Shown here one piece after another: positions 17,757 through 55,501 of a DNA stretch of 64,000 nt. The notes under the pieces were generated by a model that worked only from the letters and a program-made list of their open reading frames with translations, did not search any database and was not told the DNA's origin. The number at the start of each line of letters is the position of its first letter. Positions within the stretch are counted from its first letter, which is position 1. The DNA comes from Kiritimatiellia bacterium (GTDB lineage Bacteria; Verrucomicrobiota; Kiritimatiellia; RFP12; UBA1067). The position numbers and the translations under genes were made by a program. The stretch covers positions 34,474 to 98,473 of the forward strand of contig JAFSTA010000084.1 of the NCBI GenBank assembly GCA_017450695.1, read 5' to 3'.

Positions 17757-19088
17757 ATGAACAGAACGATCCTGATCCCGACGTTCATGATGCTATTCAC
17801 CGCAACGGCGTTCTCCGTCCCCGGTGTCTCCGCTGTCGAGGTGTTTCCGCCCGACCCTGCGCTGGGCACGGTACGGGTTACCTACTCTCTCGCAAACCCG
17901 CCCGCCATTGTCACCGCCGAACTTTTCGAGAACGGCGTCGCACTGCCGGACGAGGCGCACACCTATCTCGACGGTGATGTCAACCGTTACGTCACCAACA
18001 CCGCCTGCTCCTTCACCTGGGATCCGCGTCACGCGTGGCCGGGACACAGGATGGACGGTACTCTCACGGTACGCGTCACGGCGCATACCTTAGCCGATCC
18101 GCCTCTCTATTGCGTGGTGGATCTCTCGCACGGTTCGGAAGGCGACGCATTCCCCCTGGAGTTCTACACCAGTTCCAACGCCGTGCCAGACGGCGTGACC
18201 GCCGAGTGTTACAAGCGGCAGAAACTCATCCTCCGCAAAATCCCACGCACGGGAGCGGATGGATTTCTGATGGGCGCCCCCGAGTTCGAGGGAAGCAGGG
18301 ACGCGATCCGCGAAAAACAGCATCGTGTGATTCTGACGCGAGATTTCTACATGGGCGTCTTCGAGGTGACACAAGAACAGTTCCGCCGCATCTGCGGCGA
18401 ACAAATCTTGGGCACGAGATTTCAGACGATACACACGGAAAACGCACCCGAAAACTACACCTCGATGAATCCCGTTCTGCCGATGGACACCAACAATTTC
18501 GCCATGATCCGCGGTTCGGTCGCCGACGGAATCGACTGGCCAGCGACCGGATACACGGTCAAGGAAAATTCTTTTATGGATATCCTGCGTCGCAAGACGG
18601 GCAATCTTCTGTTGTTCGACCTGCCGACTGACGCCCAGTGGGAATACGCGGCTCGCGCAGGTAACATGGGATCCTACCCTTCGGGTGACCTATGGATGTA
18701 CACGCAGGCGAACGGGGAATCCTGGAACGACGTGATTGAAAGGGGCAACTCGAACTACGTGGGGAAAATCGGCGCGTTTGTCAATTTTCAAGGATCCCAC
18801 ATCGGGTATCCCCTGCCCGTCGGATCGTTGCGTCCGAACGCATGGGGACTCTACGATGTCTGCGGCAACATCTACGAGCGTGTGCTAGACTGGGTGGATC
18901 GGCAAAACAGTCTGACGAATGCGGTGGATCCCGTCGGAACCGACGCGGAACATGTTTACCGCGTCTTCCGTGGAGGATCCTACAATTACAGTCTCGCCGA
19001 TATCCGCCTTCCCCGCCGTTCCGCCGAATCGCCCGACCGTTGCACCGGCTATATCGGATTTCGTATCGCCGCGACCATCGTTGAATGA
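17757..19088 (+). CDS. Secreted FGE-sulfatase-fold (SUMF1/PF03781) domain protein, paralog 1, with N-terminal ~130 aa beta-rich domain
   Basis: Signal peptide. FGE-fold motifs RTGADGFLMGAPEFEGSRDAIREKQHRVILTRDFYMGVFEVTQEQF, LPTDAQWEYAARAG, NAWGLYDVCGNIYERVLDW, RVFRGGSYNY, GFRIA. Only one Cys where active FGE has the CxxxxC pair. Confidence 0.75.
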   Translation: MNRTILIPTFMMLFTATAFSVPGVSAVEVFPPDPALGTVRVTYSLANPPAIVTAELFENGVALPDEAHTYLDGDVNRYVTNTACSFTWDPRHAWPGHRMDGTLTVRVTAHTLADPPLYCVVDLSHGSEGDAFPLEFYTSSNAVPDGVTAECYKRQKLILRKIPRTGADGFLMGAPEFEGSRDAIREKQHRVILTRDFYMGVFEVTQEQFRRICGEQILGTRFQTIHTENAPENYTSMNPVLPMDTNNFAMIRGSVADGIDWPATGYTVKENSFMDILRRKTGNLLLFDLPTDAQWEYAARAGNMGSYPSGDLWMYTQANGESWNDVIERGNSNYVGKIGAFVNFQGSHIGYPLPVGSLRPNAWGLYDVCGNIYERVLDWVDRQNSLTNAVDPVGTDAEHVYRVFRGGSYNYSLADIRLPRRSAESPDRCTGYIGFRIAATIVE

Positions 19089-19100
19089 GGAGAACGTGAC

Positions 19101-20402
19101 ATGAAAAAATGTGAAATCATCTTCCTTTGCCTCTGCGTAACCAGTCTTCTTGCCAACACGCCTTCGATTGAAACCGTGGAGCTTTCTCTCTCCGCCCGTC
19201 CCGGCGAAGTGGTCGTCAACTACACGCTCGCCAACCCGCCAGCCATCATCACGGCCGCGTTTACGGCAAACGGCGAACGACTCCCCGACACCGCGAGCTG
19301 GTACATGTTGGGTGATGTCAACACGATCGTCACCAATTCCTCCGGTTCGTTCACCTGGAATTATCGGAACACGGTCACGAACCTGGAGACACCCAACCTC
19401 TCCGTCACGCTCACGGCGTGGACACTTGAGGCACCTCCGTTATACTGCTGCATCGATCTTTCCGAGGGACCGAACGCAACGGCCTATCCGTTGGAGTTCT
19501 ACACCAGTTCCAACGCCGTACCGGGAGGTGTCCCCTCCGACACGTACAAAACGGGCAAGATGCTTTTCCGGCGAATTCCGCGTAGCAGCGACGACGGGTT
19601 CACGATGGGATCGCCCGCCAGCGAATCGGGACGCAACGCCGCACGAGAGGCCCAGCGCAACGTGGTACTGACACACGACTTCTACCTGTCCGTCTATGAA
19701 TGTACGCAAGAGCAATGGCAGCGCATCACGGGAAGTTACGGGTTTTCCCACCTTGTGGATGAGATCTCCACCTGGCCGTTCTCTCCGCGGCGTCCGGCGG
19801 AGAATGTGAGCGTCGTCAACATTCGGGGATCTCGCGGCGAGGGCGTCAACTGGCCATCCACAACCAACCATGTCGCATCCGGATCCGTTGCGGGAAAGCT
19901 ACGCGCACGAACCGGCAACATCTACCTTTGGGACCTGCCGACAGAGGCGCAGTGGGAGTACGCCTGCCGCGCCGGCACGACGGGCAGCAGTTACGACGCC
20001 ACGCTTTCCCTCTCCGAAATGGCGGTGTACGGCAGGAATCAGGGCCTCGACAAACCTCCGTCCGTCGATGGCACCCAGATCGTCGGCACCAAGGTTCCCA
20101 ACGCATGGGGACTCTACGACATGCTTGGTAACGTAATGGAATGGTGTAACGACTGGCGTCAGGAAGACACCTCCAACCTACCCCGCGTCAACCCCGTCGG
20201 TCCCAACGAGTTCACGGACGCACAAGGAGTCTATTACCGCATCGCGCGCGGCGGTGGACACAATTACAGCAGCGGTTCCGTGCGTCCCGCGCACCGGAAC
20301 TCTTGGGATGACACCAAATGTAATCAGGCATGGGGATTCCGCTTCTCCGCGACGCTCGGTGCGCACTGGGACACCTCCACCACGCCCCCCACTCTCTACT
20401 AA
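19101..20402 (+). CDS. Secreted FGE-sulfatase-fold domain protein, paralog 2
   Basis: Same architecture as 17757..19088 (VVNYTLANPPAIITAAF N-domain; NAWGLYDMLGNVMEWCNDW; RIARGGGHNY; GFRFSATL). Starts 12 nt after paralog 1. Confidence 0.75.
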   Translation: MKKCEIIFLCLCVTSLLANTPSIETVELSLSARPGEVVVNYTLANPPAIITAAFTANGERLPDTASWYMLGDVNTIVTNSSGSFTWNYRNTVTNLETPNLSVTLTAWTLEAPPLYCCIDLSEGPNATAYPLEFYTSSNAVPGGVPSDTYKTGKMLFRRIPRSSDDGFTMGSPASESGRNAAREAQRNVVLTHDFYLSVYECTQEQWQRITGSYGFSHLVDEISTWPFSPRRPAENVSVVNIRGSRGEGVNWPSTTNHVASGSVAGKLRARTGNIYLWDLPTEAQWEYACRAGTTGSSYDATLSLSEMAVYGRNQGLDKPPSVDGTQIVGTKVPNAWGLYDMLGNVMEWCNDWRQEDTSNLPRVNPVGPNEFTDAQGVYYRIARGGGHNYSSGSVRPAHRNSWDDTKCNQAWGFRFSATLGAHWDTSTTPPTLY

Positions 20403-20413
20403 GGACCTCCGAC

Positions 20414-21655
20414 ATGAAACACCCGATGATGATTTTCCTCTGTGCGGTAACCTTCTCCGCGTCCGCACTTGATTTACCCGAAATCCTCGATGTTTCCCTC
20501 GGGCACAAACTTCCCGCTTCCCGATCGCTGGTGGTGGACTACACCCTGACGAACGGCCCGGCCATCGTCACAGCCACCTTCTTTACCAACAACATCCCTT
20601 TGCCGGACAACGTTGTCACCTCGCTCACCGGAGACATCTGCCGGATCGTGACGAACGGCGCATGCCGTTTCGTCTGGGACGCGCCGACGGACTGGCCCGG
20701 GCATCAAGGTATCCTCCCGCTGACGAAGGTAACGATTGCAGCGCACCCACTCTACTTTCCGCCGCGTTATTGTCATATCGACCTCTCTGGCGGAACAGGG
20801 GCAACCAGCTACCCGCTTTATTTCTACGAGTCCAGCAACGCCATTCCAGGCGGCGTCGAAAGCGACCGCTACAAAACGACGGATCTGCTGCTGCGCAAGA
20901 TCGACCGCACGGGATCGGGCGGCTTCCTGATGGGGTCGCCCCCGTGGGAGTCCAACCGCAACTCCAGACGCGAACGCCAGCACACGGTTGTCCTGACGCA
21001 AGACTACTTCATGGGCGTCTATGAGGTGACCGTCGGGCAGTGGCAGCGCGTGATGGGAACCAGCGTACAGCCCAACCACACGGGCGACGAACGATACCCG
21101 ATGGAGAAAGTGACCTACGGCGAATGTCGCGGGGCGCGTTCGGAAAACATCGACTTCCCGACCACGGGCTTGCGCGTCTCACCCTCCTCCTTCGCGGGCG
21201 TCCTCAGGCAAAAGACGGGTAACATCTATCCCTTCGACCTGCCGACCGAAGCGCAGTGGGAGTATGCGGCACGCGCCGGTATCCTCGATTCTTTTTCCGA
21301 CGGTTCCACGATGGGCTGGCGATCCGCCACACAGCAGAGGGGAAAAGTGCATTTCAACACGAACTCGACAATCGTCGTCGGCAGTTACCTGCCCACGCAA
21401 TGGGGACTCTACGATGTACAGGGGAATGTGGTCGAATGGTGCCGCGACTGGCTGCTGGACGAGAACCTCCCCGACGCGACGGATCCGGTCGGTCCGTATG
21501 AACAGCAAACCTATCGCTCCGCGCGCGGCGGGCATTGGGATCACGCCATCTACGAGCTTCGCTTCGCGCGACGCAATGCGTGGAACGACACCTCGCGGTA
21601 TAGCACGTTCGGGTTCCGTCTCAGCGCCACCATCATCCCCATCCCGTCCGAATAA
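20414..21655 (+). CDS. Secreted FGE-sulfatase-fold domain protein, paralog 3 (no Cys in the catalytic-loop position)
   Basis: Signal peptide MKHPMMIFLCAVTFSASA. LVVDYTLTNGPAIVTATFF N-domain. TQWGLYDVQGNVVEWCRDW; RSARGGHWDH; GFRLSATI. Starts 11 nt after paralog 2's stop; an upstream in-frame ATG at 20330 overlaps paralog 2 and is unlikely to be the start. Confidence 0.7.
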   Translation: MKHPMMIFLCAVTFSASALDLPEILDVSLGHKLPASRSLVVDYTLTNGPAIVTATFFTNNIPLPDNVVTSLTGDICRIVTNGACRFVWDAPTDWPGHQGILPLTKVTIAAHPLYFPPRYCHIDLSGGTGATSYPLYFYESSNAIPGGVESDRYKTTDLLLRKIDRTGSGGFLMGSPPWESNRNSRRERQHTVVLTQDYFMGVYEVTVGQWQRVMGTSVQPNHTGDERYPMEKVTYGECRGARSENIDFPTTGLRVSPSSFAGVLRQKTGNIYPFDLPTEAQWEYAARAGILDSFSDGSTMGWRSATQQRGKVHFNTNSTIVVGSYLPTQWGLYDVQGNVVEWCRDWLLDENLPDATDPVGPYEQQTYRSARGGHWDHAIYELRFARRNAWNDTSRYSTFGFRLSATIIPIPSE

Positions 21656-33710: not shown

Positions 33711-36700
33711 ATGTCATACAAATTGTTTGCGCAGGTGTTTGCGGCGGTTGCGGGAATTTGCATCTCGACGACGCCGTCGTTCGGCGGGCTGGTGGCGAAG
33801 TGGGACTTCAACAACTACGATCCGACGAACCCGACGGCGACGAACATCCTCGCGGCGACTGTCGGCGACGCGGGTAAGCCTTGTTATTATTACGTGAACA
33901 ATTCACCCAAGTGAACCGCGCTCGTGACGGATGGCACGCTCGGGCAGATGTACGTGGTTGCGCCCGACTATACCGGTTCTGATGCGGTCGTCACCAATGC
34001 CGCCGCAGGTCTCGGGGAAGGCAACTACGCCATCGCGATTCCGAAGTACTCGCATGTCGCCCTGCCGATTCCCGATGCCGTGAAGAACCACGTCTGGACG
34101 ATGAAGATACGCTTTTACCGGGCGGACTCGTCCTTCGAGACCCTGTTCAACCGCAACGGTAACACGACCGACGGGGATCTCTTCATCCGCAACAACAGAA
34201 CCGTCAGCGGAAAACTGGCGGACAGCGTCGGCGGCGGCAAGTTCGCCGGGTCCAACAATTACAAGACTCCTGTTTCGAGCGGTGTCTGGCACACGCTGAC
34301 GATCTCCGTCGGCGAGCAGCGCTGGGACGTGTACCTGGATGAAACGACGTTGTGTACGTACAATAACAGCGGAGAGCGGAAAACCTATTTCGCCGACAGC
34401 GACGAACCCCTCAAGGATATCGACGGAGTCGGCCATCTTCTCCTGTGCGCCGACGACGACGGCGAGGACGGGCTTCTGTACATCGACTACGTGGAGCTGT
34501 ACGACGAGGCGTCCGTTTACGAGGGCAAGCTGCCGCACTACTCGAAGGCGGGCTTGATGGGCGAGTGGACGTTTCCCGTCGCCAATCCCGTCAAGGCGAC
34601 AGTCGGGCGCGACCTCGTGAAGCATACGCATGACGGACAAACCGTCAGCTTTGCCGAGGCGACAGACGGCGTTCTTCCCGGCGACGGGTACGTCCGCGCC
34701 GGGCGGTACAACGACTTCATCTGCTACCACGGACTTCCGGCCAACAGCAGTTACACCGTGGTGATGGACGTTCGCGTGCCGCGCAATCCCAACGGTACGC
34801 AACAGTGGCATTCCCTGTTCTCGGCGAACGATTCGCAGGACGCATCCGTCTTCATTCAGTACAAGAACAGCAAGCTCAACATCCGCTCCTCCGGCGACAA
34901 GACCGTCGCAATGGGTGTCGCGTTTGACGAATGGCGCGCGTCGCCATCGCGTACACGAACAATATCAAAAAAATCATGTACGTGAACGGCAAGATGAACC
35001 ACGAAAGCACCGTGCGCCAGGACCGCATGAAGACAACCAAAGGCGGACACTTCTCCCTTCTCGGCGACAATGACGGCGAGGATTTCGAAGTCGATATCTC
35101 CTACGCGGCAATCTACGACCGCATGTTGACGGCAGCCGAGATCGCTGAACTCCATTCGCGTCCGCTCGCGCAACGCGCAGACGAGTCGTTCGTGCCCACG
35201 CTCGCCCCTGCGGGCGTGTGGGTGGCCGACGGCAACGGCGGCCTGGCGACCTCGAAGGGGATGCCGCTCACAGCGGTGGGCAACGGCTACACCTGGACGC
35301 GCACAGCGGTGACGAATGTCGCCACGTATGTCGCCGACATCACGCTTCCCGCCGTGCAGACGGACGGCGGCGTGCTGGCCATGAACGTGAGCGGCGTCGC
35401 CTCCGGCATCTACGGCACGGGCAGCACCTACTCCGGCAGTTTCACCACGACGACCTCCGCCGGCAATTTCCTCGCCAACACCACGGTGGGCAAGTGGGGT
35501 TACTGGACCGAGAACGCACTCGACCGCACGTACCCGCACCGTGTGGCGGTAACATGGGCGGCGAACGGACGCGTCCACTACTATGTTGACGGACGTCCGT
35601 GGGGACAGATCACTCCCACGGACGGCGACACTTCGCTCCAGCCATCGGACACGATGACGTTCCTGGACGGTCTCGCGTCGGGCGTGACGAGGTTCGCCGC
35701 CTACGACGCGACGTTGACGCCAGATGAGGTGGCCGCGCTCGGCGGCGCGGGCACGTCTTTCTCCGGCAACGCGCCCAACGCGCCGACGGTTTCGGCGACG
35801 GTTCCAGCCGATCCCGTGAAGGCGCTCGTCGATCCCGTGACGTTCACCGTGTCGGGAACGCATCCGGACGGCGAGTACATCTCGTTCGCGATCGACTTCG
35901 GCGACGGCACGGGAGACTGCACGTCCGAACTCGTCCCCTCCGGTTCGTCCGTGACGTTCTCGCACAAGTACATCGCCGTCGGGACGATGACGCCCCGCGT
36001 AAAGACGATCTCGCAGAACGACGTGGAAAGCGCGTGGACATCGCTGGCGACGCCGTTCGAGGTCGTGAGCGTCTCCGTCGCGGCTCGCGACGTACTGCTC
36101 ACCTGGCCGTGGCAGCAGAACGTCTATACGAACCGCTTCACGATTATGTGCGAGGGCGTGAAGGACACGGAGGACGCGACGCGCTGGGACGGCCTGGAAG
36201 TGCAGTACGGCGCGGGCTACGCGCAACATGCAACGATGTCGCGCGTGGAGGGGAACGGAACCACATGGATCTACACCGCGCACATCACAATCGACGGCGC
36301 GGACGGACAGACCATCCCCTACCGCCTCGGATACTATGGTCTTCCGCTCACATTCGACGACCCGGCAGACGACACCGCCGGTACGGTGAAGTTGTGGTCG
36401 CAAGACGAGAACGAGTCTTTCACATGCGCCATTTGGGGTGACAACCAGCAGGGTGGAAATACCTACGACTGGGGTTCCGACAAGTTTCTCTACGTGACAC
36501 GCCTTTTCGAACACATGGTTTCGCAAGACGTCGATTTCGGCATCTCGACGGGCGACATGGCGTCCAACGCAAACTACGCGAACGAGATACGTCCCTGTAT
36601 CCTCGACCGCACGGACGCGATCTTCGGCCGCACGCGTCCCTACTATGTGGCGTGGGGCAACCACGACACGGGCTTTCCCGCGAACAAGCCGTACTTCGAG

Positions 36701-39700
36701 ACGGGCGCCGTGGACGAACCCGCCTACGGCACGAGCGCATCGGGCAACTACTACCTCTATCGCGGGAACGTTCTCTTCATTTTCATCGACAACGGTCTGA
36801 TGACCGCCGCCGCCACGCAGACCTGGCTCGCGGACCTGCTCGCCACGGATCGCGCCCGCGCGGCGAAGTTCCGCATCCTCGCGCAGCACGTCCCGTTCTG
36901 GCTTGAGTGCTGGGGCGGACACAACAGTATCGCGCTCCTCGAAACCGCGAAGGCGGGAGGAATCGACCTGGTACTCTCCGGCCATATGCATGGATACGAA
37001 CGTATCCACAAGGACGGCATCGTACAGCTCACGAACGGAGGTGCCGGGTATCTCGACCATCTCGAATCCGTGTCCGTCAGCTACGGCGACGCCACGTTCA
37101 TCGGCGGGCACAGGGACGTGCCCTACCTTTGGGCGCGGCAAAAGAGCACGGACGAGACGAACGTGATCGGACCGGCCGAGCCCGTGCGAATGGGTTGCAT
37201 CCAGAGTTACGGCGAGCTGAAGGTGGACGGCGCGACGCTCACCTACACCGCGCACGGCTTCCACGCGGACGGCAGCTACATCGGCGTGTTCGACGAATTC
37301 TCCCTCACCTCGCGCACCGTCATAGCGACGGCGCCCTCGCCGTCCTCTTCCATCACCTGCGCCGATCCCTCGACCTTCGCGCAGTTCACCTCCGCGTCCG
37401 TCACGAACGCGAAGTGGAAGGAGTACAAGGACGCGGTCGGCGAAGCGTTCACCTACGCGGAAGGCGCGGGCGCCGATCCGGTCGTGAACGTCTCGAAGAA
37501 CGAAATCGAGAAGTTCCTCGTCTGGCTCAACGGCGCAAACGGAGACTACCGTCTGCCGACCGCAGGCGAACTCGAGACGGTGTTCGGCGGTGAACTGCGG
37601 CGTGATGTCGCGGAGTGGACCTCGTCCGTCGATCCCCGCACGGGGTGGTGCCGCATTCTCGGTTCTCCCTTGTGCGCGGCGGACGGCACGTGGTGCCGCG
37701 AAGCAGACAAGCCATCCATCGCGACGGCGGGCTGCCATGCGAACTACCTCGGTTTCCGTCTCGCCACCGGTGCGGCTCCGGCGGAACCGGCGGCGCCCGG
37801 CGCGTCGCTCGCGCCCGCACTCGCGTCTCTGGAACAGATTGCCGCCCCCGCTGCCGTCTATAAGTGGCAGAATAATACCCTCGTCGATATTACGGCGGAG
37901 TGGACGAATCCCGCATCCGACCTCTCTTACCAGGTTCCGGTAATCTTCACGGGCAAGGGCGTGATCTCGAACAACCCGACGGCATTCAACGTCACGTTCC
38001 ACGCCGGACTGGCCGCGCCATATTCGACACAACTCGTCAAGAGCGGCGAAGGCGCACTTACGGTCAAGGGCGTGGTCAAAGGCGGCGTGTGCGACTCCGA
38101 GGGCGGATGGGTAATCGCCTCCGAGGGACCGCTCTCGTTCGAGGATGTCGTGTTCGCCGGGCAGGGCGTACAGTTCCGTTCGGGCGACCGCGCACTGCTG
38201 CTGAAGGGCGACAACGACTTCTCCGGCGCGGACATCTTCCTCAACGGCGCGAACAACAACTGCACGAACTACGTAGCCTCTTCAACGCCAGCGACATTCC
38301 GTGCGCGGCGCATAACGAACAAGGGCGCGAATCCGTCTGGCATTGGCGAGAACCTCTCTCTGATCCTCTCCAAGGACATTCGGTTCAGTGGCGGGTACAC
38401 GATGCACATCGATGGTTCGCTGGACGCGGAGGCGTTCAACATGTTCACCAATAACGACCCGTGGCTGTTCGGAGCCGGCACATTGCGCGTCGGGTATTTC
38501 GGGACGTACGACCACTCGTGGATTCGGCTCGCCGTGTCGAACGCCGTATTCACCACGGCGCGTCCGCTCCGCTCCAACCATGAGAAATACTATTCAGGCG
38601 TTCTTCGTGGCAGGGGATGTCGTGCGCCTGTCCTCCACCTGCGACTGGGAGATCGGCGAGAAAGACAACTTCGGAAAACCCGTTTACATTCTTGCGAATA
38701 CCACGCATGCCGCCCGTCCTAAGCTCGTGATCGAGGGGACGCACGACGTCCTCTATGCGCCTACAGCATCCGTCGGATCCTACGACACCACGAGTAGTTA
38801 CACCGCCCCCTGGGACGTAGAAATGGCCGGAACAGGGACCGTAACGGTCAAGACGCCGACGCAGGGCGACATCAACGTGTCGAACGGCACGGTGAAGATT
38901 TCCGCCCTGCCGTGTGCAGGGATTACCTCGACCTCCGGCACCGGCAATTGGTCGATCGACGAAACGCTCTCACTTTCGGCGGGGCAGATCGTCCACGGCG
39001 CGTTCGCGACGGGCGGTACCCTCTCCTTCGACTTCGGCGCGAACGGTGCCGGCGAATATGCCGTGCTGGAGGGGTGCGGGCTTTCGGAGGGAGACATCAC
39101 GGTGACGACCTCACTCGACGGCGACAACCAATACACCGTGAGCCGCGACTGGTCCGGCGGGAACCTCACACTGACACTCATGCCCGTCGGCGCTCGGATC
39201 GCCGAATGGACAGGCGGCGGCACGGCCGAGAATCCGTTCGACACGGCGAACTGGCGCGTGACGGACGGAACAGGAACGGAGATTCCAGGCGCCGTGCCGA
39301 ACGCCTCCACGTTCATCCGCCTCGCCGGCGCAACGGCGCTCAGCTTCCCGCAGACGGAGGGATTCACCTACGCCGGGCTGATGCTCACGGATGGCGTCTC
39401 GCTCGTGGCCGACTGCGACTGGAGCGGACTTGGCACGGTCGCGTTCCGCGACGGCACGTGGATCGACCTGCTGGGGCACCGTCTGGACATCACCGGTTTC
39501 ACGGGCGTGACGGCGGGCATGGCAGGCGTGACCGATTCGACGATGGACGCGGAGCATCCGGGCGAACTTCACATCCGCGTCGCGGAAGATGCGACCTTCA
39601 CAAATGACAAAGTCGCGCTGAACGGCAATCTTCGCCTCGTGAAGGAAGGCCTGGGCACGTTTGTGGCGACCAAGGCGAACCAAAAATACACCGGAGGCAC

Positions 39701-40562
39701 GGAAATCGTTGCGGGGACTTTGAAATGCGGGGCGAAGTCGTCTTCCTGGCCTTTTGGCGGAGACGGCAACAAGAATGAGGCGTCGCAGATTATTACCGTC
39801 GATAGAGGAGCCACGCTCGACATCAACGGGATGACGGCTTTCGGCTACATAACGATCGTGTTCAACGGCGGAACGGTGAAGGGTGCCTCGACGCAGTTCA
39901 ACTGCGCAAAGCGGCTTACCGACGATTCGTATCTTGAAGTGACGGGGGACATGAAGTTTCAGACCCATCCGCTCGTCTTGGACAGGCATACCCTCGAAGT
40001 GTCGATAACCTCGGCGAAAAACCTCATATTCGACTCGTGTTCACCAGAGGGCCCCGGCAAGATCGACATCAAGTCCGGCGGTTATCTGCTGATGCAGAAC
40101 ATTGAACATGTTGCGACGAACGTGGACTTCGTCGTCGGCAGCGCGTTGAAAATCAACACCGCATCGAGCGTACACGACTACGAGGCTGTATTCAACGGCA
40201 ACTACAACCTCGGGGCTGCGGCGCTGAACGTACACGGTACTTTCAAGCCGTCCGCGCACGACTGCTTCTACGGCTGCACGATGATGGACGGCTCGACCAT
40301 CGACCTGACAAACCGCACCACGCCGCTTCCGCTCACGTCCGCGTTCACCGACAGCGGCTTGAAGACGCTCTCGTTCGCGAACGGCGCGACCATCCGGGTG
40401 AAGGTGGACGGCAGGTCATTCTCCGGACGGACCGTGAAGGTCATGTCGTGGAATGAACCACCGGCGAACGTCACGTTCGTTTCCGCTGGCAACGGTACGG
40501 TCAAGGCGGAAGCAGACGGCCTCTACTTTGTCAAGGGTGGCACCGTCTTGAGTATCCACTAG
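33711..40562 (+). pseudogene. ~6.8 kb giant surface-protein gene (LamG x2, calcineurin-like metallophosphatase, FGE-fold domain, autotransporter-type beta-strand repeats) interrupted by an in-frame TGA (33912..33914) and two frameshifts (~34935..34945 and ~38560..38600)
   Basis: ORFs 33711..33914 (signal peptide MSYKLFAQVFAAVAGICISTTPSFG) and 33924..34985 are in the same frame, separated by one TGA. A LamG domain is split between frame 0 (..AMGVAFDEW) and frame +2 (RVAIAYTNNIKKIMYVNG..) at a gcgcgcg run. Metallophosphatase motifs GDMASN / GNHD / GHMHGYER. FGE-fold motif DYRLPTAGELETVFGG...GFRLATG. The last segment, 38578..40562, carries repeats such as LVKEGLGTFVATKANQKYTGGTEIVAGTLKCGA. It may alternatively be 3-4 separate genes, or reflect assembly indels. 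Confidence 0.5.
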
Positions 40563-45420: not shown

Positions 45421-45799
45421 AAGTTGTGCTTGAAAAGACAACAGCTTCTGCTATGATAAGAGCGTTCTTTGGCGGTTGACCGCCGAGGAAAGACAAAATC
45501 CGGAAACTGACCGGGGTCGTCAAGCGACGTATGGAAGCCGACACCCCTCTCCACCTCCGGAGGTTAAGATTGTGGCATCAACGCTACATCGTCGTTCAGC
45601 AGAAATACGACCAATGTTTTTAATCCAGAACGACGTGTAAGTGATGATGCGTCCGTAAGGGCGCATTATCTTTATATGTATTCTGGATGGGCCTTTGGTC
45701 GGGCTTCTGCTGAGTGCATGAAAGGAAATGCGCTCTTTTTATGTATGTGACCAGGGGGGGTCCACGGCATTCGCAAGCGCACTATGCTGGAGGGGCGGG

Positions 45800-47871
45800 A
45801 TGGTTGCCGCCGGAATGGACATGGCGCAAAAAAGTTTGATCGGCGAACTGCCGAAGATTCTGGAAGAGGGTAAACGCGAGGCAGGAAGAATTCTGGAGCG
45901 ACTCTCGGACAACGTGAAAGTCGGACTTCAAACAAACGAGCTGGTACTCCCCGCGAAAGATGTGGACGGTCTCTTCAAGGGGCAGATGCCGACACTGGGT
46001 TCTTCGACAGGATTTACAGGATTAACAGGATTTGAGGCGGCCTCCCCTATGCCCGAAAATCCTGTCAAGAACAGTCCCTGGATCAACCGACTCATCTACG
46101 GAGACAACCTCCTCGTGATCCAGGCGTTGCTGGCGGGTGATGAAAAGACAAGTCTCCCTTCCTTGCGCGGCAAGGTCGATCTCGTCTATATCGATCCGCC
46201 CTTCGACTCCAAGGCCGACTACCGCACGAAAATCCACTTGCCCGGCACGGACATCTCGCAGAAACCGACTGTCATCGAGCAGTTCGCCTACTCCGACACG
46301 TGGAAGGACGGAACGGCAAGCTACCTCCGCATGATCTGCCCGCGCCTCATCCTCCTCCAGGAACTCCTCGCCGACACTGGATCCATCTACGTTCACCTCG
46401 ACTGGCACGTCGGCCACTACGTCAAAATCCTGATGGATGAGATTTTCGGGAAGGAGAATTTCAGGAACGAGATAGTGTGGTATTACAATAATAAAATGAG
46501 TGGTGCGGTTGTGAGTCATGATTTTGTATGTGAGCATGACACATTGTTTTTCTACTGCAAAACAAAGCAAAACCATTTTAATGAAATAAGGGAAGATAGG
46601 GATATACCAGTGAAACAAAGCAAGCGGGTGAAGATCGACGGGAAAAATATGAGGGCAAGAGATGCTGATGGAAACATGATATATGAAATCTCATTTGACA
46701 AGAAAGTCAAAGATGTTTGGACTATTCCATATATCGCATCAACCTCTAAAGAGCGTGTGGACTATACCACCCAGAAACCCGAGGCCTTGTTGGAGCGCAT
46801 CATCAAGGCATCATCGAACGAGGGAGATTTGGTGCTGGATGTCTTCGCGGGGAGCGGGACGACAGCGGCGGTGGCGGAACGGCTGGGGCGACGTTGGATT
46901 TCGGTGGATATCGGGAAGCCGTCGGCGTTGATCCAGCGAAAACGCTTCATCGACAATGAGGTGAAGCCATTCCTCTACCAGTCGGTCGGCGACTACCAGA
47001 AGGAGGCCTTCGGTGCATCGCGGCTGTTCCGTCGGATCGGCGACTTGTGTGAGGTCGTACTGAAACTCTACGGCGCGGAACCGTTTCCGGTGGAAAACTG
47101 CCCGACGCGCAACGCGGGGCAGATTCGCGAGTCGCGGACGCTCGTCCTGGTCGATAGCCCGAACAAACTCACGAATGCGGCAAGCGTGAAACGGGCGGCG
47201 GAAGCAAAGAACACGGCACTCGGCGGCGGCTGGTCGAAGGTGGTTCTCTTGGGCTGGAATTTCGCGTGGGACATTTCACAGGCAGCGCAGATGTACAAGG
47301 ACGTCGAGGTACTGGTGATTCCGCCAGATCTGATGGACGCGCTGAAAAAGCGCGGTTTTGCAGATCTCGCGGCAAACGGCAAGGTTCGTTTCTCCTCACT
47401 GCAGTATCTGTCGCTCAAGGATGTGCGGAGAGAGAGAGGATCGCATCTCACGCAGAGGCGCGGAGAGGTGGGGAATGCAAGGAAATTAACGGATTGGAGG
47501 TCTCGGCGGACTCTGCGCCTCAGCGTGAGGAAAATATGGAACGCATCATTGTCGAACTGGGCAACTACGTGCTGTTGTCACCGGACAACATTCCTTTAGA
47601 CGATAAGGACAAGGAGATCTTGGCGAAAATCGCGAAGGAAGACCCGCTGGCACTCATCGAATACTGGAGCGTCGATCCGGACTACAACGGCGAAACATTC
47701 CGCAGTCTCTGGCAGGACTACCGTGAGAACACGGGGAATGACGACGATCCCGACCATTGCGTATTCACGGCGGAGATTGTCGTGCCGAAAAAGCCGAAAG
47801 GTACTCGTGTCGTATGCGTAAAGGCTGTCGATGTCTTCGGCTTCGAGAGCGTGGCAACGGTGAGAGTGTAA
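45800..47871 (+). CDS. mod: Type III restriction-modification Mod subunit (beta-class N6-adenine/N4-cytosine DNA methyltransferase), frameshifted near 47427..47440
   Basis: Motif IV DPPF in [12 protein letters not shown]. AdoMet motif [15 protein letters not shown]. The reading frame switches from +2 (ORF 45728..47599) to +1 (ORF 47266..47871) at a (GA)5 run, ggAGAGAGAGAGga. The C-terminus continues in the other frame (..[20 protein letters not shown]). Central 46440..46760 is markedly AT-rich, a probable target-recognition domain. Confidence 0.7.
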
Positions 47872-47883: not shown

Positions 47884-50830
47884 ATGGCGAAGAAAAGCAC
47901 GGCAATGAACACAGGACGGATTCCGTTGGAGTTCGCGAAACGAGTAAGCGAAGCAGCGGAGGCGGCATACGGAAACGGTTCGATGGCGCACGCGGTCTCA
48001 CCCGTCACGCGAGAACTGCTGAAATACTGGTTCGAGGAACCGTTCACGGATCGTCCGCTCAACTTCCACGAAGGACAGAAGCGGGCTATCCTGAACGCCA
48101 TCTACCTGCACGAGGTCATCGGCGCGGCGAACATGACGGATGCCTGGGCGAAAATCGGTCCAGAGCTACTGGAAACGGAGAACGGCGCGGTGATGGCGGA
48201 ACTCTCCAAAGACAAATACGCCTACCCGAAATACTGCGTGAAGATGGCAACGGGAACGGGGAAGACATGGGTAATGCATGCACTTCTGATCTGGCAGTAC
48301 CTGAACGCACGATATCCCGTCAAGGGGGCGGTGACGCCGTCCCCGTCGTTTGTGAAAAACTTCCTCTTCGTGGCACCGGGGCTGATCGTCTATGAGCGGC
48401 TGCTTGACGCCTTTTGCGGCAAGCGAATCGACGGCGGCGAGATGCGGGATTTCACGACGAGCGACATCAAAAGCTGCGAGTCACTTTTCGTGCCTCCGCA
48501 GTATCGTGATGCGCTGTACGCTTTCCTCCAAAACTCACTGGTACGCAAGGAGGATTTCGGTCGCAAAGTGACAGGTGACGGAACGTTGGCGGTCATGAAC
48601 TGGCATACGTTTCTGGGCGAGGAGGAAGGTTCGCCTTCCGAGGATTCGGGGGCGGAGTCCCCATCCGTTTGCACCGATGACGGCAAGGGAATTCTCGACG
48701 AGCTCCTTCCCGCGAAGCCGGGAATAGCGGCTGGTAACGCCCTGGAGTCGCTGGACGCCTCATTCCTGCGCGGCGGAAGACTTGATTTCCTAAAGGACTT
48801 GCCCGATCTGATGCTCGTAAACGACGAGGCGCACCATGTGCATGGAGGAACAAAAGACGAGGAAGAAGTCAAGTGGCAACAGGGAATCGACGCGTTGGCG
48901 AAAGGGAAACGGTTCATTCAGCTCGACTTCTCGGCGACACCATACGAACCATCCGGGAGCGGGCGCAACGCGCAACAAGCGCGAGGACTATTTTCCGCAC
49001 GTAATGGTCGATTACGACCTCCCCGCCGCAATCCGGGCGGGGCTTGTGAAGACCATCATCATCGACGAACGCAAGGAGTTGGCGAACGAGCTTGTCGATC
49101 TGGACTACAAAGCCGTCCGGGACGGGCGGCACGTAGTGGGACTGAGCGATGGACAACGGCTGATGTTACGGGCCGGGTTGGCAAAACTCCGGTATCTCGA
49201 AAAGGAGTTCGCATCGTTAGATGAAGCGAAGCGGCCGAAGATGATGGTGGTCTGCGAGGACACGGGCGTAACACCGCTCGTCTCCGATTTTCTGCGAGAG
49301 GAAGGACTTTCCGACGACGACATTCTGACGGTTGACAGTAACAGGCAGGGAGATGTCGGAGAGAAGGAATGGAACAAGATGAAGGGAAAACTCTTCGCGG
49401 TTGACAAGCGCGAAAAGCCACGCGTCATCATCTCCGTTCTCATGCTCCGTGAGGGATTCGATGTCAACAACATCTGCGTCATCGTGCCACTCCGAGCATC
49501 CAACGCGCAGATTCTGTTGGAGCAGACACTAGGACGCGGGCTACGCCTCATGTGGCGGGAACCGGAATACAGAGAAACCAAGGATAAGGCGAGGGATCAA
49601 TTAATCGTAGAAAAGGTCGAGCCTTGCGCGGTGTTAGACTTCCTTTACATCATCGAGCATCCGGCGTTCAAGGAATTCTACGACAATCTCGTTGCACAGG
49701 GACTCGTTGGAACGCAGAAAACGAAAGACAGAGACGGTGGCGGGAAAGACGACCTCGTTCATTCCGTCCTCAAGGAAGACTACGAGAATTGGGACATCTT
49801 TTGGCCGCTGGTGCGGAGAGAAAGCGAGGAAATCCTATCTGATGAAGCCCTTCCCCAAGAAGGCTTGGAACCTTTCACACTCTATCCGCTGTCGCGGTTA
49901 CGTGAAATCTTCGCGAGACCGGGCGAGGTATTCGTGGGGAAAGAACTACTTGTCCGGACGACATTCGGCGAGTACCGGGTTCATGCGAATCTCTTCAATG
50001 CCACATGCTACAACGAGTACATTCAAGGCATCGTCGATTCGATTTCTCGCCGATTCATGCGTATTGCAGGAAAGCAGACAAGTGCAATGCCCGCCTTGCA
50101 GATACACTTAGCAAAGATTGCCGCGGTGGTGGACAGGTTCATTCGGGAACGGCTGTTCAATGAGCCGTTCGACCCATTTAGCGGAAATGACTGGAAGATT
50201 CTCCTCTGTCGCAATGGAACCATCACCAACCATATCGTCAAGCAGGTGGGTGAACTGGTTTATTGGATTGAAAACAAAACGCTCAAGACTCAAGCAGATG
50301 TCGATCGACTTTGGTTCTCCAGCGTGCGCGACTTCGTCGTTCGGAAAGGTGCGTCGCTTGAACTGACGAAAACGATCTACACGCGCACCGGTTATCCGAC
50401 GAAGGGGGGCGGGCTGGAGAAGGATTTTATGGAGTTCATCGACCGCGACGGCGGAGTGGAGAGGTTCGTCAAAGTCAACGAGGCAAAACACATCTTCGCA
50501 CGGATTGCCTATCTTCGCACAGATGGACTGATGGGCGAGTACATTCCCGATTTCCTTGTCGTGACGGAAAAACACGTCTGGCTGGTGGAAACAAAGGCTG
50601 AAAAGGACAAGGATGATGGAAACGTGCAGGCAAAGCGAAACGCAACAGTACAGTGGTGCAAGGGTATCAATGCTCTGGAGAAAGAAGATCGAATGAACCG
50701 AACATGGAGTTATCTGCTTCTGACGGACAAGGATTTCTATGCCTATCAAGATGGAAATGCCACATTCCATGATTTGTGCAGGTTTTCTGAAGTCACGGAG
50801 TCGGGGTTAAAGGGCGAGTTTACGTTCTGA
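47884..50830 (+). CDS. res: Type III restriction-modification Res subunit (SF2 helicase/endonuclease), frameshifted near 48945..48985
   Basis: Walker A ATGTGKTWV, DEAH box LMLVNDEAHHV, motif III FSATP in frame +1 (ORF 47884..49224). The rest (KREDYFPHVMVDYDLPAAIRAGLVKT ... to 50830) is in frame +2 (ORF 48836..50830). Starts 10 nt after the mod stop. Confidence 0.7.
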
Positions 50831-51259: not shown

Positions 51260-53347
51260 TCATGCGTTCACGCTTGTTCCGAAGAGAAGCAAGCCGAGTG
51301 AGGAGACGGTCGCTTCTTTCGCGATGGCGTCGGGTTCCCTCCCCGCCTTTCGCAATGCGGTCGCTGTCGGGTTTCCGAGAACGACAACCTTCTTTCCGGT
51401 CAACCGATCCGCCCCGAATTGGTTCAGGAAGGATTCGACTGCCGAAGCGCTTGCGAAAAATACGGCATCGAATCTCGGCAGGTTGTCATACCGAACCTCT
51501 TCGTTGCGATAGAGGATGCAGTCGGTAACGGTTGCGCCTCGTTCACGCAGTGCGCCCGCCACGCTCTCCCCCGCCTTCTCGGAACGGAAACGTAAAATCC
51601 GCTGTCCGTTCCAATAGCCGTCTGACAATGTGGCGATGAGTCCTTCCGCGCTAAAGGATTCCTTCGGCATCCAGTCGGCGTGCAAGCCCGCCGTTTCCAG
51701 TTCCGACGCGCATCCGGGACCACAAACTATCAATTTCGGAACCTGGCGCAGATCGAACGATTCGGATCGCAACAGTTCCAGAAAGATCCGTACCGCGCTT
51801 GGGGAAGTGAGCACAACCCAGTCGTACGAATCCAGCGAACGGATCTCCTCACGCGCACGGGATTCGGCCCGGAGACGGATCAACGGACGCGCAAGCGGGA
51901 CGCCTCCCAGATCGCGTACCGAAAGTTCGGCTTTGGGCAGAATGGATTCGCTACAGGTCAACAGCACGCGCATCCCGTCCAGACCACCCGCTGCGCTTCG
52001 ATATCCGCCCGCGGCTGGAGAACCGATCAGGATCAGTCCCGGAGCCTCTTCCCCTTCACTCGGATGCAAGGTAGCCAAAGTTCCGCGAACGATTTTCTCC
52101 TCCTCGCCGCCTGCCTGATACACGATGGCGGCAGGTGTCTCCGGTGACCACCCCTCACCGATCAGACGACGCGCGACGTCCTCCGCGAGCTTGACGGACA
52201 TGAAGAGAACGAGCGGGAAACGACTCCGTTCCTCGATCCCGACATCCGCATTCCCGCCCCCTTCCGCACGAGGCGTCATCACGGTGAACCCGCGTGACTC
52301 GCCGCGTTTGGTCAAGAGCATCCCCGTGCCGGTCGTGGCCGCAACCAGCGCGCTGACACCGGGAAGCACACGATACGGGATCTGTAATTCATCGAGCCTG
52401 CCGATCTCTTCGGACAAACGCCCGAAGAGGCCGGGATCGCCGCCCTTCAACCGAACGACGCGAAGCCCCTGCCGCGCGTACTCCGCGATCAGCTCCGTAA
52501 TCTCGGACTGCGGCATCGAATGTCCCCCGCAACGCTTCCCCACAAAGACTGCCTGTGCCTGCGGCGGCAACTCGCGCAACAACCGTTCGTCCATCAGCTG
52601 GTCGTACAGGCAGACATCCGCCTGACGCAGCTCTTTCAGTCCGTCCCATGTGATCAGTCCGGCGGAACCGACCCCCGCGCCAACGAAACGAACCGCCTTG
52701 ACGAAGCAAGAACGAAGCCGCATCCATTCCGGGTTCCCTTTGCGGAAGGTGACTGCCAACCGGCCTTGCGCCAGAGGCGTCGGCAACCGGTCAAGCGGAA
52801 TCCATTCTGTGATGCGCTCGGAAAGCCCCAGTCGTTTCAGTGCGGCGCCCGCCATAATCACGACATCGAAATCCCCCGCGTCGAGTTGTGCAATCCGAGA
52901 AGGAATGCTGCCGCGAATGGGACGGATCACGGCATCGGGGAACTCGGAATTGACGTATGCTTCCCGGCGGTCGCTGCTAACGCCGATGACCGGGCGCGAC
53001 AACGAGGCGCGGGATTCCCCGGAACGCAGCACAAGGCAATCGCGCGCGTCCTCGTACCAAGGGAGCCAGAACCAATCAAGCCGCGGATTCGGCAACGGGT
53101 AGGAAAGGTCCTTCGCGCTGTGGACGGCAAGGTCGATCATACCTGATAAAACCGCCTCGTCCAAATCACGCGAAAAGAAATCGGCCGGGGCGGTACGGAG
53201 ACTGCTCGCCAAATCACGGTCCCCCGGCGAAGAGAACGGGATCGTTTGGAAAGAGAGGAACGGAAAGAGACCGATGATGCGGTTCAAGGCATCTTGCGTC
53301 TGCGCCAGAGACAACGCGCTTCCGCGCGTGCCGACTTTCCACTGCAT
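51260..53347 (-). CDS. Tetrapyrrole triple fusion: HemC-like (hydroxymethylbilane synthase domains 1-2 only) + uroporphyrinogen-III C-methyltransferase (CobA/SUMT) + uroporphyrinogen-III synthase (HemD)
   Basis: N-terminal WKVGTRGSALSLAQT...AVHSAKDL...VIMAGAALKRLGL...PLAQGRLAV (HemC domains 1-2; the domain-3 cofactor Cys region is absent). Middle VRFVGAGVGSAGLITWDGL...VVRLKGGDPGLFGR...LPGVSA (SUMT). C-terminal DWVVLTSPSAVR...AVFFASASAVE (HemD). Confidence 0.75.
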   Translation of the reverse strand: MQWKVGTRGSALSLAQTQDALNRIIGLFPFLSFQTIPFSSPGDRDLASSLRTAPADFFSRDLDEAVLSGMIDLAVHSAKDLSYPLPNPRLDWFWLPWYEDARDCLVLRSGESRASLSRPVIGVSSDRREAYVNSEFPDAVIRPIRGSIPSRIAQLDAGDFDVVIMAGAALKRLGLSERITEWIPLDRLPTPLAQGRLAVTFRKGNPEWMRLRSCFVKAVRFVGAGVGSAGLITWDGLKELRQADVCLYDQLMDERLLRELPPQAQAVFVGKRCGGHSMPQSEITELIAEYARQGLRVVRLKGGDPGLFGRLSEEIGRLDELQIPYRVLPGVSALVAATTGTGMLLTKRGESRGFTVMTPRAEGGGNADVGIEERSRFPLVLFMSVKLAEDVARRLIGEGWSPETPAAIVYQAGGEEEKIVRGTLATLHPSEGEEAPGLILIGSPAAGGYRSAAGGLDGMRVLLTCSESILPKAELSVRDLGGVPLARPLIRLRAESRAREEIRSLDSYDWVVLTSPSAVRIFLELLRSESFDLRQVPKLIVCGPGCASELETAGLHADWMPKESFSAEGLIATLSDGYWNGQRILRFRSEKAGESVAGALRERGATVTDCILYRNEEVRYDNLPRFDAVFFASASAVESFLNQFGADRLTGKKVVVLGNPTATALRKAGREPDAIAKEATVSSLGLLLFGTSVNA

Positions 53348-53837: not shown

Positions 53838-54311
53838 ATGCCCGAGACCGCCAACAAGATTTTATTCTGTACAGATTTTTCGCAAAATGCGCTTCAGTCG
53901 TTTTCCTATGCGATTCGCGCCACTAAGGAGATTCCCGACGCGCAGCTGGTTCTCTTCCACACGATGCCGGAACCAGACGCGCAATTCTGGAAAGGGTACA
54001 TCTTGGATTCGGATGACGCCATGACGGAGATGAAGCAAAAGATCCACGAGAAGATCGATGCGGAGTATCGCCCGCTCCTGCCACCAGACTGCCCGATGGA
54101 AGTCGTGCTGACCACCGGCGACGCACCGGAGGAGATTCTGCATTACGCGAACCGGGAGAATGTCCGGATGATCGTACTCGGCAGACAAGGGAGCGGCATG
54201 ATCTCCCAATGGCTGATGGGGAATGTCACAGCCCGCGTCGTCCGCAAGGCGAACTGCCCCGTCCTCGTCGTCCCCTTCTCCTTCATCGAAAAACAGAAGC
54301 AGGCCAAATGA
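53838..54311 (+). CDS. Universal stress protein (UspA family)
   Basis: ILFCTDFSQNA...LVLFHTM and C-terminal MIVLGRQGSGMISQWLMGNVTARVVRKANCPVLVVP (Usp ATP-binding tail). AGGAGG RBS upstream. Stop overlaps the next start (ATGA). Confidence 0.75.
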   Translation: MPETANKILFCTDFSQNALQSFSYAIRATKEIPDAQLVLFHTMPEPDAQFWKGYILDSDDAMTEMKQKIHEKIDAEYRPLLPPDCPMEVVLTTGDAPEEILHYANRENVRMIVLGRQGSGMISQWLMGNVTARVVRKANCPVLVVPFSFIEKQKQAK

Positions 54312-55501
54312 TCGGAATCTCGAAGCTTTATCTAGGTACCGTCGAAGTATCCGACCCGTTGCGGTACGGACGTGCGTCCGGCAAACTTCCGAGTCACCTG
54401 CTCCAGTTCTCGAAGGACAAGAAACCTGTCGTCGTGTGGAATGTCACTTCGCGCTGCAACCTGAAATGCGAACACTGTTACGCCGCAGTCCCGAAAGTCC
54501 AGCCGGAGTTGACCGCCGAACAGGCGTTTGCGGTTTTGGACGATCTCGCCGGGTTCGGAGTTCCTGTTGTGTTGTTCTCCGGTGGCGAGCCATTCACCCG
54601 TCCCGATATCCTCGACCTCGCCCGTTATGCGGCCTCGAAGAAGTTACGCGTCGTGTTCTCGACCAACGGGACGCTGATCACGCGCGAAGTCGCGGAGGAA
54701 ATCCAGAAGATCGGCGTTTCGTATGTCGGCATCAGCATCGACGGCGGGCAAGCGGTTCACGACCGTTTCCGTCGCATGGAAGGAGCCTTCCAAGCCGCGC
54801 TCAACGGGATCCGGAACTGCCGCGACGCAGGAATCAAGATCGGTCTCCGCGTCACGATCACTCGTGACAACGTGCAGGAAATCCCGGCGGTGTTCGACCT
54901 CATGGAAACGGAGAAGGTGCCGCGCCTCTGCCTCTATCACCTTGTCTATTGCGGACGCGGCGCGGAAATCGCCGACCATGACCTCACGCCTGAAGAACGT
55001 CGCGCCACGGTGGATCTCATCATCGACCGGACAAAACGCCTGCACGACCTCGGATTCCAGACCGAAGTGTTGACAGTCGATAACCATTGCGACGGTCCCT
55101 ATCTCTATCTGCGGATGTTGCGCGAGGCAAACCCGCGCGCCGGCGATGTATTGTCGCTCCTCCAGATGAACGGCGGCAACAGCACGGGACTCGGGATCGG
55201 CTGCATCAGCTGGGACGGAACCGTCTATCCCGACCAGTTCTGGCGCAACAAACCGCAGGGCAACGTGCTGGAGAAACCATTCAGTGAAATCTGGGGAAAA
55301 CCGCCGGAGGATTCCCTCCTCTGGCAGTTGCGCCACCGGAAGGAACGGATCACCGGACGTTGCGCGAACTGCCGCTTCCATTCCGTCTGCAACGGCAATT
55401 TCCGCGCACGTGCGGAAGCCGCCACGGGTGACATCTGGGCAAGTGACCCGACATGCTATCTAACGGATGAAGAAATCCGAGAACAAGCAACAACCATGTA
55501 A
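54308..55501 (+). CDS. Radical SAM / SPASM-domain enzyme of the NirJ/AhbC/AhbD (heme d1 / alternative heme biosynthesis) family
   Basis: CX3CX2C cluster VVWNVTSRCNLKCEHCY, FSGGEP, STNGTLI, SPASM-like GIGCISWDGTVYPDQFW and CANCRFHSVCNGNFRARAEA, C-terminal DPTCYL. This set matches my recollection of NirJ/Ahb-type proteins rather than anSME. Confidence 0.6.
   Translation: MIGISKLYLGTVEVSDPLRYGRASGKLPSHLLQFSKDKKPVVVWNVTSRCNLKCEHCYAAVPKVQPELTAEQAFAVLDDLAGFGVPVVLFSGGEPFTRPDILDLARYAASKKLRVVFSTNGTLITREVAEEIQKIGVSYVGISIDGGQAVHDRFRRMEGAFQAALNGIRNCRDAGIKIGLRVTITRDNVQEIPAVFDLMETEKVPRLCLYHLVYCGRGAEIADHDLTPEERRATVDLIIDRTKRLHDLGFQTEVLTVDNHCDGPYLYLRMLREANPRAGDVLSLLQMNGGNSTGLGIGCISWDGTVYPDQFWRNKPQGNVLEKPFSEIWGKPPEDSLLWQLRHRKERITGRCANCRFHSVCNGNFRARAEAATGDIWASDPTCYLTDEEIREQATTM

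Follow-up and report, generated by a model that had tools for sequence, protein, structure and literature searches.

The region 33711..40562 on the forward strand of a 64,000-nt stretch of a Kiritimatiellia bacterium genome (assembly GCA_017450695.1, contig JAFSTA010000084.1, positions 34,474 to 98,473; hereinafter, the window) contains four consecutive open reading frames (ORFs), which an earlier note had described as one giant surface-protein gene, either decayed or mis-assembled. The question raised by this locus is whether the breaks in the gene exist in the organism or only in the assembly, and what protein the gene had encoded before it was broken. Of the two possibilities, decay is favored, as the same lesions recur in independent assemblies of different samples, and the region is very probably a single, genuine, recently inactivated, lineage-specific pseudogene whose lesions are real.

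Joining the ORFs 33711..33914, 33924..34985, 34931..38722, and 38388..40562 yields a single conceptual protein of 2,283 aa. The previously reported coordinates of these ORFs are exact (67, 353, 1,263, and 724 aa in frames 0, 0, 2, and 0, respectively), and the TGA codon at 33912-33914 lies in the same frame as ORF1, which it ends, and ORF2. The gene is thus divided into four fragments. The first one (33711..33914, 67 codons) comprises the signal peptide and the conserved GLVAKWDFNNYD, the start of the mature protein, and is terminated by the premature stop; AGLVAKWDFNNYDP is common to homologues immediately after the hydrophobic N-terminus. The second fragment (33915..34934, frame 0) covers N-terminal LamG-like jelly-roll modules and the first half of the LamG domain detected by Pfam; its end, GVAFDEW, corresponds to GV.F.EW[AM]RV in homologues. 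The third one (34937..38593, frame 2) includes the second half of this LamG domain, a further LamG-like region, a PKD domain, a metallophosphoesterase module, a module similar to formylglycine-generating enzyme (FGE), and the start of a beta-helix, and the fourth (38595..40562, frame 0), the C-terminal all-beta, beta-helix-like stalk with a short C-terminal tail. The reported split of the LamG domain is also real: in ORF3 alone, Laminin_G_3 is matched over positions 84-151 of 151, versus positions 14-151 across the junction in the repaired protein. In NCBI, the ORFs from 33711..38722 are entered as separate proteins (locus tags IJR99_05105 and IJR99_05110), two of them named "hypothetical" and one, "metallophosphoesterase": MBQ7188778.1 (the 67-aa fragment), MBQ7188779.1, and MBQ7188780.1 (ORF3). 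The main value of the analysis is in annotation, as these three unrelated public entries (MBQ7188778-80) should become one pseudogene.

The reading of the region as one gene with three lesions is borne out by intact homologues of approximately 2,290 aa, whose reading frames pass all three sites without a break. End-to-end matches to the joined protein come from at least 20 intact single-ORF homologues (2,262-2,310 aa), the closest one with 79% identity. In a search of 5.8 billion protein clusters we identified 15 proteins of 2,272-2,310 aa with 99-100% query coverage and 62-79% identity, as well as more distant full-length relatives with identity down to 40%. The sole 100% match is ORF3 itself, annotated as "MAG: metallophosphoesterase [Kiritimatiellae bacterium]", where MAG stands for metagenome-assembled genome, and the 90%-identity clusters of ORF1, ORF2, and ORF3 are singletons. 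No intact allele of the gene above 80% identity was observed among the proteins searched, 79% being the maximum, and JGI metagenomes yielded nothing closer than 70%. GTDB species representatives, with identity of at most 70%, contain 17 loci, and every homologue there occupies one uninterrupted frame (single-frame high-scoring segment pairs in tblastn). Aligning the repaired protein with orthologues had been proposed earlier as a check; it was done on homologues, and every complete one found is a single ORF. Orthologues with the segments as separate intact genes, which the earlier note had set against its own reading, do not occur among the homologues found.

The lesions were placed by nucleotide alignment to the nearest intact relative, L004 (positions 3599-10483, encoding the intact protein P0001; 83% nucleotide and 79% amino acid identity), and to L005, and the lesion sites were also compared in an alignment of 21 proteins. 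All three sites, on the forward strand, are flanked by residues conserved in the family (as compared with 20 proteins). Lesion 1 is the in-frame TGA at 33912..33914, located at a near-invariant Gly of the GKG|TAL sequence in a loop whose length varies, with YVNNSPK*TAL in the window versus YA-SNKGKGTAL in several intact homologues with the same long loop and NAG|TAL in P0001. Its simplest origin would be a single GGA-to-TGA transversion at codon 68. Lesion 2 (34932..34935) is the loss of one nucleotide, with GAAT-GGCGCGCG versus GAATGGGCGCGCG in L004 (E-W-A-R-V); a G is missing from TGGG after position 34934, which destroys E-W-A-R-V and shifts the frame from 0 to 2. A frame change had been noted at the gcgcgcg run around 34940; the frameshift indeed exists, but not within the run, as the lost G immediately precedes GCGCGCG. 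Lesion 3 (38593..38594) is one extra T, ACTATTCAGG versus CTA-CCAG in L004 (..YYQ/SYQ..), shifting the frame from 2 back to 0; it falls within 38560..38600, where the second frameshift had been expected.

All three lesions recur outside the window assembly. Contig L002 originates from another biosample (SAMN15829943); in 11,723 bp it shows four single-nucleotide polymorphisms (SNPs) and zero gaps relative to the window, and it carries all three lesions. L003, a contig of the Logan assembly of run SRR12529377, is 100% identical through lesions 2 and 3. Contigs L007-L009 (ERZ28019071 and ERZ28018698, with k141 MEGAHIT-style contig names, and biosample SAMN15829890) carry lesions 1 and 2 gaplessly. 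Lesion 2 is gapless and identical in L002, L003, L007, L008, and L009 and is present in three biosamples; lesion 3 is identical in L002 and in the Logan contig L003 and is present in assemblies of two biosamples. The 67-aa ORF1 terminated by the TGA is present on 16 contigs, which together with L002 represent at least seven biosamples, three further assemblies, and two Logan run assemblies. The lesions are true mutations, not sequencing or assembly errors, and have become fixed in the population, as sampled in several animals. Such recurrence across independent assemblies, Logan included, is a way to tell gene decay from a MAG assembly error without resorting to reads.

The inactivation appears to be recent, and nearly the whole history of the gene seems to have passed under purifying selection, as there is no excess of lineage-specific amino acid changes (132 on the window branch versus 184 on the branch of the intact P0001), dN/dS relative to L004 is low (0.23-0.25 over the first 1,627 codons and 0.32 overall), and the window protein keeps all invariant catalytic residues. 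The nonsynonymous divergence is uneven, with dN of 0.455 in the C-terminal third versus approximately 0.09 elsewhere. Within the gene, four SNPs distinguish the samples (T637P, G1188V, I1215T, and Ala to Glu at 38758); each of them is nonsynonymous, and G1188 is invariant in the family. Although there are just four of them, they are suggestive of constraint being relaxed now.

Two other genes of the window are broken as well, and the frame changes reported in them previously are real. The Type III mod gene (N6_N4_Mtase; 45728..47871) has a frame change at a (GA)5 tract (47428-47437), and removing one GA unit (the lesion is +2) restores a plausible C-terminus. This OFF length is the same in assemblies of three biosamples and in one Logan run, and we see no sign of active phase variation of mod in these assemblies. 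In the Type III res gene with the ResIII helicase domain (47884..50830), the lesion at 48963-48976 is a 7-bp tandem duplication, GCGCAAC-GCGCAAC, also present in the Logan contig and two other assemblies; dropping one copy restores ...PSGSGRNKREDYFPHVMVDYDL, also given as ...ATPYEPSGSGRNKREDYFPHVMVDYDL.... As both mod and res are broken, the whole Type III restriction-modification system is inactive in this lineage.

These two frame changes could be taken as a sign of a systematic indel problem, such that the surface-protein gene would be intact in the organism, with its stop and indels being consensus errors. Two of its lesions are at short homopolymers (GGG to GG and T to TT), and every assembly stems from one study. 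Still, lesions 1 and 2 are base-identical in separate assemblies of at least three biosamples, and the same bases are present in independent MEGAHIT-style assemblies and in Logan assemblies; a substitution, such as lesion 1, and a 7-bp tandem duplication, such as that in res, are not typical read errors. Moreover, the five lesions of the window belong to five mutational types (a nonsense substitution, –1, +1, +2, and +7), which disfavors a single systematic error mode. They all fall within three accessory genes that occupy approximately 12 kb of 64 kb (the probability of such placement by chance is ~0.19^5 = 2e-4), while no frame break was seen in the other window genes checked (approximately 52 kb). 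Among them, the SNF2 helicase, the class I Glu/Gln-type tRNA synthetase, the HemC-methylase-HemD fusion, the radical-SAM protein, SOD, the glycosyltransferase, and three FGE-domain proteins have unbroken Pfam matches; PGK, GDPD, TPK, CLC, Der, and CstA are single ORFs with those Pfam families in the gene calls of the collection. An artefact is, given all this, highly improbable. A full-length protein might also be produced from the broken gene if the TGA were read through or decoded as selenocysteine and the two frameshifts were compensated by –1 and +1 ribosome shifts. In favor of programmed recoding, no stop other than at the three sites interrupts the 2,283 codons, and the catalytic residues are preserved; however, the residue that homologues carry opposite the TGA is Gly, not Cys or selenocysteine, and none of the three sites requires recoding in them. 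Folding of the 86 nt that surround and follow the TGA is not better than that of shuffled controls (z +0.87), with no fold resembling a selenocysteine insertion sequence (SECIS) element, and neither shift site has a slippery heptamer or a prfB-like +1 motif, as judged by eye. Selenocysteine or readthrough was rejected on the grounds of the missing SECIS-like structure downstream of the TGA and the Gly of homologues, and a variant code in which TGA would specify an amino acid, on the grounds that TGA is the commonest normal stop of the window, ending 11 of its 27 genes. Three such events in one lineage of an otherwise recoding-free family would be very unlikely, and we regard recoding as having next to no chance of being correct.

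Reversible phase variation would fit the surface nature of the protein and the recombining cassette described below: the frameshifts would act as ON/OFF switches of a surface antigen, with mod as a phasevarion regulator, as the (GA)5 tract of mod carries its +2 lesion and lesion 2 adjoins GCGCGCG. But the lesion tracts of the gene itself (GG and TT) comprise only 2-3 bases, whereas high-frequency slippage would need longer ones, and the first lesion, being a nonsense substitution, is not revertible by slippage at all. The same OFF lengths are observed in every assembly from every sample, both in the gene and at (GA)5, with no length polymorphism seen, which leaves this explanation highly improbable. 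The fragments could instead have become independent functional genes, especially the one for the 1,263-aa "metallophosphoesterase", as ORF3 starts at ATG and keeps all catalytic motifs, and NCBI lists separate coding sequences. This would imply, however, that a functional protein begins in the middle of a LamG domain and ends within a beta-helix, and that fragments 2-4 function downstream of the sole signal peptide, whereas all homologues start with signal-like sequences and none shares the split structure. One of the exclusively nonsynonymous SNPs within the lineage, moreover, hits an invariant Gly of ORF3, and neo-functionalization is, in our opinion, very unlikely.

Several considerations weigh against the interpretation of the locus as a genuine pseudogene or limit it. 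The evidence comes from assembled contigs, and a minority intact allele within the samples is possible. The supporting assemblies all originate from one study (XIEF21-1, SAMN158298xx-158299xx) and, presumably, one sequencing platform, so that a platform-specific systematic error is excluded only by argument, that is, by the presence of a substitution and a 7-bp duplication and by the runs being 2-3 bases long. The evidence for relaxed selection consists of just four SNPs. Finally, the ancestral function discussed below is deduced purely from domains, where the FGE-like match is sub-threshold and the respective part of the structure model has low confidence.

The ancestor of the pseudogene would have been a Sec-exported protein of approximately 2,283 aa from a paralogous family of ruminant-gut Kiritimatiellae, carrying, in this order, a signal peptide, LamG-like modules, a PKD domain, a metallophosphoesterase similar to purple acid phosphatases (PAPs), an FGE/C-type-lectin-like module, a long beta-helix stalk, and a tail with hydrophobic residues followed by IVR. 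Every homologue begins with a hydrophobic, signal-like N-terminus. The LamG domain cut by lesion 2 (Laminin_G_3; 34734..35146, repaired residues 342-479) is matched with E-value 4e-12, and in this region the family profile also touches lectin-like domains of the botulinum-toxin Hc type. The PKD domain (35819..36025), absent from the earlier list of domains, is present in the window protein: PKD_4 of Pfam is weak here, 17 of the 21 family members match it, and the family profile matches PDB entry 4xed and ColH PKD domains (E-value 9e-08).

The PAP-like module (36092..37309) consists of an N-terminal beta-sandwich and a binuclear metallophosphoesterase domain. The calcineurin-like metallophosphatase proposed for this region is confirmed by the Pfam Metallophos match (E-value 2e-10, 41.8 bits versus the 21.5 cut-off), and the motifs GDNQQG, GDMAS, GNHD, QH(V/Y)P (QHVP in the window), and GHMHGYER occur in order and are invariant in 21 sequences. 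A single-sequence search of PDB retrieved nothing, so that the family profile and a fold search were needed. The profile matches kidney-bean PAP (E-value 5e-05), and plant PAPs are the top matches of the AlphaFold model (Foldseek E-value 1.5e-14, target-normalized template-modeling score, TM, of 0.62, approximately 490 alignment columns); both domains of the fold, the beta-sandwich and the alpha/beta sandwich, are matched in this model, where the predicted local distance difference test (pLDDT) score is only 66.

The next module (37376..37774), similar to FGE-sulfatase proteins and having the C-type-lectin fold, shows a partial PF03781 match at positions 49-142 of 255. The FGE-fold domain claimed earlier is thus below the threshold in the window protein itself (17-19 bits versus the 23.3 cut-off) but is upheld by the family, where 19 of the 21 members match, the best one with E-value 7.7e-07. 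The AlphaFold confidence in this region is below 50, too low for use. Residues C1314 and C1342 are invariant in the family. A binding function is more likely for this module than formylglycine-generating activity.

As for the repeats of the PATR type, they are weak (17.2 bits versus 27), and fragment 4 has no other Pfam family; the all-beta nature of the C-terminus, on the other hand, is modeled confidently. The AlphaFold model of the C-terminal 656 aa is all-beta, with pLDDT of 87.4 and a predicted TM score of 0.83, and has beta-helix-like strands to the end; its top structural matches, to the autotransporter passengers SepA, Hap, and Hbp, are weak (E-value 3.5e-4, TM ~0.2). As no Pfam domain and hence no beta-barrel translocator is detected at the C-terminus, the protein does not appear to be an autotransporter. 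NCBIfam produced spurious sub-threshold matches only. The architecture was fairly called unusual, but it is a trait of the whole paralogous family of ruminant-gut Kiritimatiellae and not of this particular locus.

Plant PAPs, e.g., the kidney-bean PAP (PDB 4dhl/2qfp; PF00149), are both the best structural match of the phosphoesterase module and its best sequence match among solved structures. They share with it the succession of an N-terminal beta-sandwich and a binuclear metallophosphoesterase and the order and spacing of motifs GD..., GDxx., GNH[DE], xxH, and GH.H.YER, with GHMHGYER in the window protein corresponding to GHVHAYER in kidney-bean PAP. In contrast to plant PAPs, the module is an internal part of a multidomain secreted protein of 2,283 aa, and the identity is only 12-15%. 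The PAP motifs include the chromophoric Tyr metal ligand of GDxxY, which makes PAPs purple. By motif register and spacing, this position is an invariant Ser (GDMAS) in the family, and hence we call the module PAP-like and not a PAP. With the FGE-sulfatase/SUMF1-like proteins (PF03781) the window protein shares RLPT.[AG]E(L/W)E ... W ... GFR(L/V)A, the C-terminal core of the C-type-lectin-like fold, but its module covers only approximately positions 49-142 of 255, with the score below the gathering cut-off. An N-terminal signal peptide, stalk-displayed functional modules, and an all-beta, beta-helix-like C-terminal stalk are common to the window protein, the passengers of type Va autotransporters (SepA, Hap, Hbp, pertactin), and PATR proteins of Verrucomicrobiota and the Planctomycetes-Verrucomicrobia-Chlamydiae superphylum, the PATR match of the window protein being weak. 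It differs from type Va autotransporters in that no barrel is detected, the protein ending with the beta-helix and the short hydrophobic-IVR tail, and in that its enzyme modules are N-terminal to the helix; the structural matches are weak (TM ~0.2).

Judging from the domain content, the ancestral protein may have been a secreted or surface phosphoester hydrolase on a stalk, with binding modules for a carbohydrate or polymer. The beta-helix would hold the enzyme off the cell, and the LamG, PKD, and lectin-like modules would target it to glycans or polymers. In the proposed course of events, three independent mutations, namely, the change of a Gly codon to TGA at codon 68, the –1 deletion in the G run, and the +1 T insertion, would have accumulated in the gene, and the first one alone would cut the signal peptide off from everything downstream. 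The surface function would be lost, as the later fragments, even if translated, could not be exported. The loss was probably tolerated, since related genomes hold up to four paralogues. This is ordinary biology, in that one paralogue encoding a large surface protein has been lost, as happens routinely, and the locus agrees without any material difference with ordinary pseudogenes of accessory surface and restriction-modification genes, which similarly have intact homologues, several independent fixed lesions, signs of relaxed constraint, and inactivated accessory neighbors (here, mod and res).

The intact members of the family provide some further observations. The 17 GTDB loci are all from gut MAGs of the Kiritimatiellae type, mostly ruminant (goat rumen, sheep rectum, and roe-deer omasum "RGIG" genomes, plus RUG and UBA bins), and the family is apparently restricted to gut Kiritimatiellae. 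As some genomes hold three or four copies, these giant secreted proteins constitute a paralogous family. The nine proteins encoded in the flanks have no homologue beside any of the fetched family members, except for one weak GTPase match to Der. A literature search returned nothing on this protein family or on the pseudogene load in Kiritimatiellae.

Within the beta-helix, a segment of approximately 210 aa (39591..40220, residues 1961-2170) has a relatedness opposite to that of the rest of the protein, being only 37% identical to P0001 (80-85% elsewhere) and 85% identical to P0003 (55-82% elsewhere), which points to recombination between family members, either paralogues or members from different species. 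Two types of this cassette are spread over the family irrespective of the overall relatedness. Recombination of this sort is common for exposed surface proteins. The C-termini of P0001-P0026 have a conserved family tail, DG(L/V)(Y/W).....(hydrophobic x3-4)(I/V)(R/K), matched by no Pfam or NCBIfam model, which could be a sorting or anchoring signal. Nineteen of the 20 homologues end with ..IVR/IIR/ILK versus ..LSIH in the window, where the tail (40540..40559) is degraded to ...GGTVLSIH.

In two of the loci with intact family members, a separate gene (5959..7866 in L010, encoding 635 aa, and 6001..6891 in L014) is located immediately upstream of the family gene. Its product shares 54% identity with residues 1-300 of the family protein, which points to a duplicated N-terminal LamG module that may exist as a stand-alone gene.

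All four indels of the window are of the slippage type at short repeats, that is, the G run, the T run, the (GA)5 tract, and the 7-bp duplication. A more far-reaching interpretation, which we consider unlikely, is that the clustered knockouts are not due to chance and reflect either a past or present mismatch-repair-deficient mutator or adaptive shedding of surface and defense functions; the latter, if true, could mean, e.g., the loss of a phage-receptor-like surface protein. Separately, and with the same reservation, the family might represent a new class of stalk-displayed surface phosphoesterases for phosphorylated glycans of the gut. Such a class, if real, would comprise proteins of approximately 2,290 aa that combine a PAP-like enzyme devoid of the Tyr ligand with a lectin-like module and a beta-helix bearing a swappable 210-aa cassette, in up to four copies per genome. 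The parent family is uncharacterized and might merit biochemical study, to which this locus adds little.

Several other features of the window were observed. The segment 40563..40715, located in the gap that separates the pseudogene from the convergent CLC channel gene, contains two tandem copies, with a period of approximately 75 bp, of a GC-rich element, whose 40-nt core GCACCGCAAAGCGAGCCCCCCACCCTCACGTGTGGGCGGG has exactly two occurrences within the window; it could be a terminator or an element similar to repetitive extragenic palindromes. The scans of the window for tRNA genes and Rfam families were empty, and the scan for promoters and terminators performed no better than on shuffled sequence. 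The first giant surface protein of the window (8502..13478) is intact, with 1,658 aa and LTD, LamG, CHB_HEX_C, CotH kinase-like, Fn3_assoc, and PATR domains; neither its family nor its C-terminus (...RFYRLKVFLK) is that of the pseudogene.

Three consecutive genes in 17757..21655, encoding proteins of 443, 433, and 441 aa, each have a complete FGE-sulfatase (SUMF1-like) domain, and the radical-SAM/SPASM protein encoded at 54209..55501 is possibly of the anaerobic sulfatase-maturase type. These three FGE genes and the radical-SAM protein fit the sulfatase-rich lifestyle of Kiritimatiellae. Finally, on the reverse strand, one 695-aa ORF (51260..53347) encodes porphobilinogen deaminase (HemC), a tetrapyrrole methylase domain, and uroporphyrinogen-III synthase (HemD) in a single chain; such a three-way fusion, which combines consecutive steps of the tetrapyrrole pathway, is uncommon.

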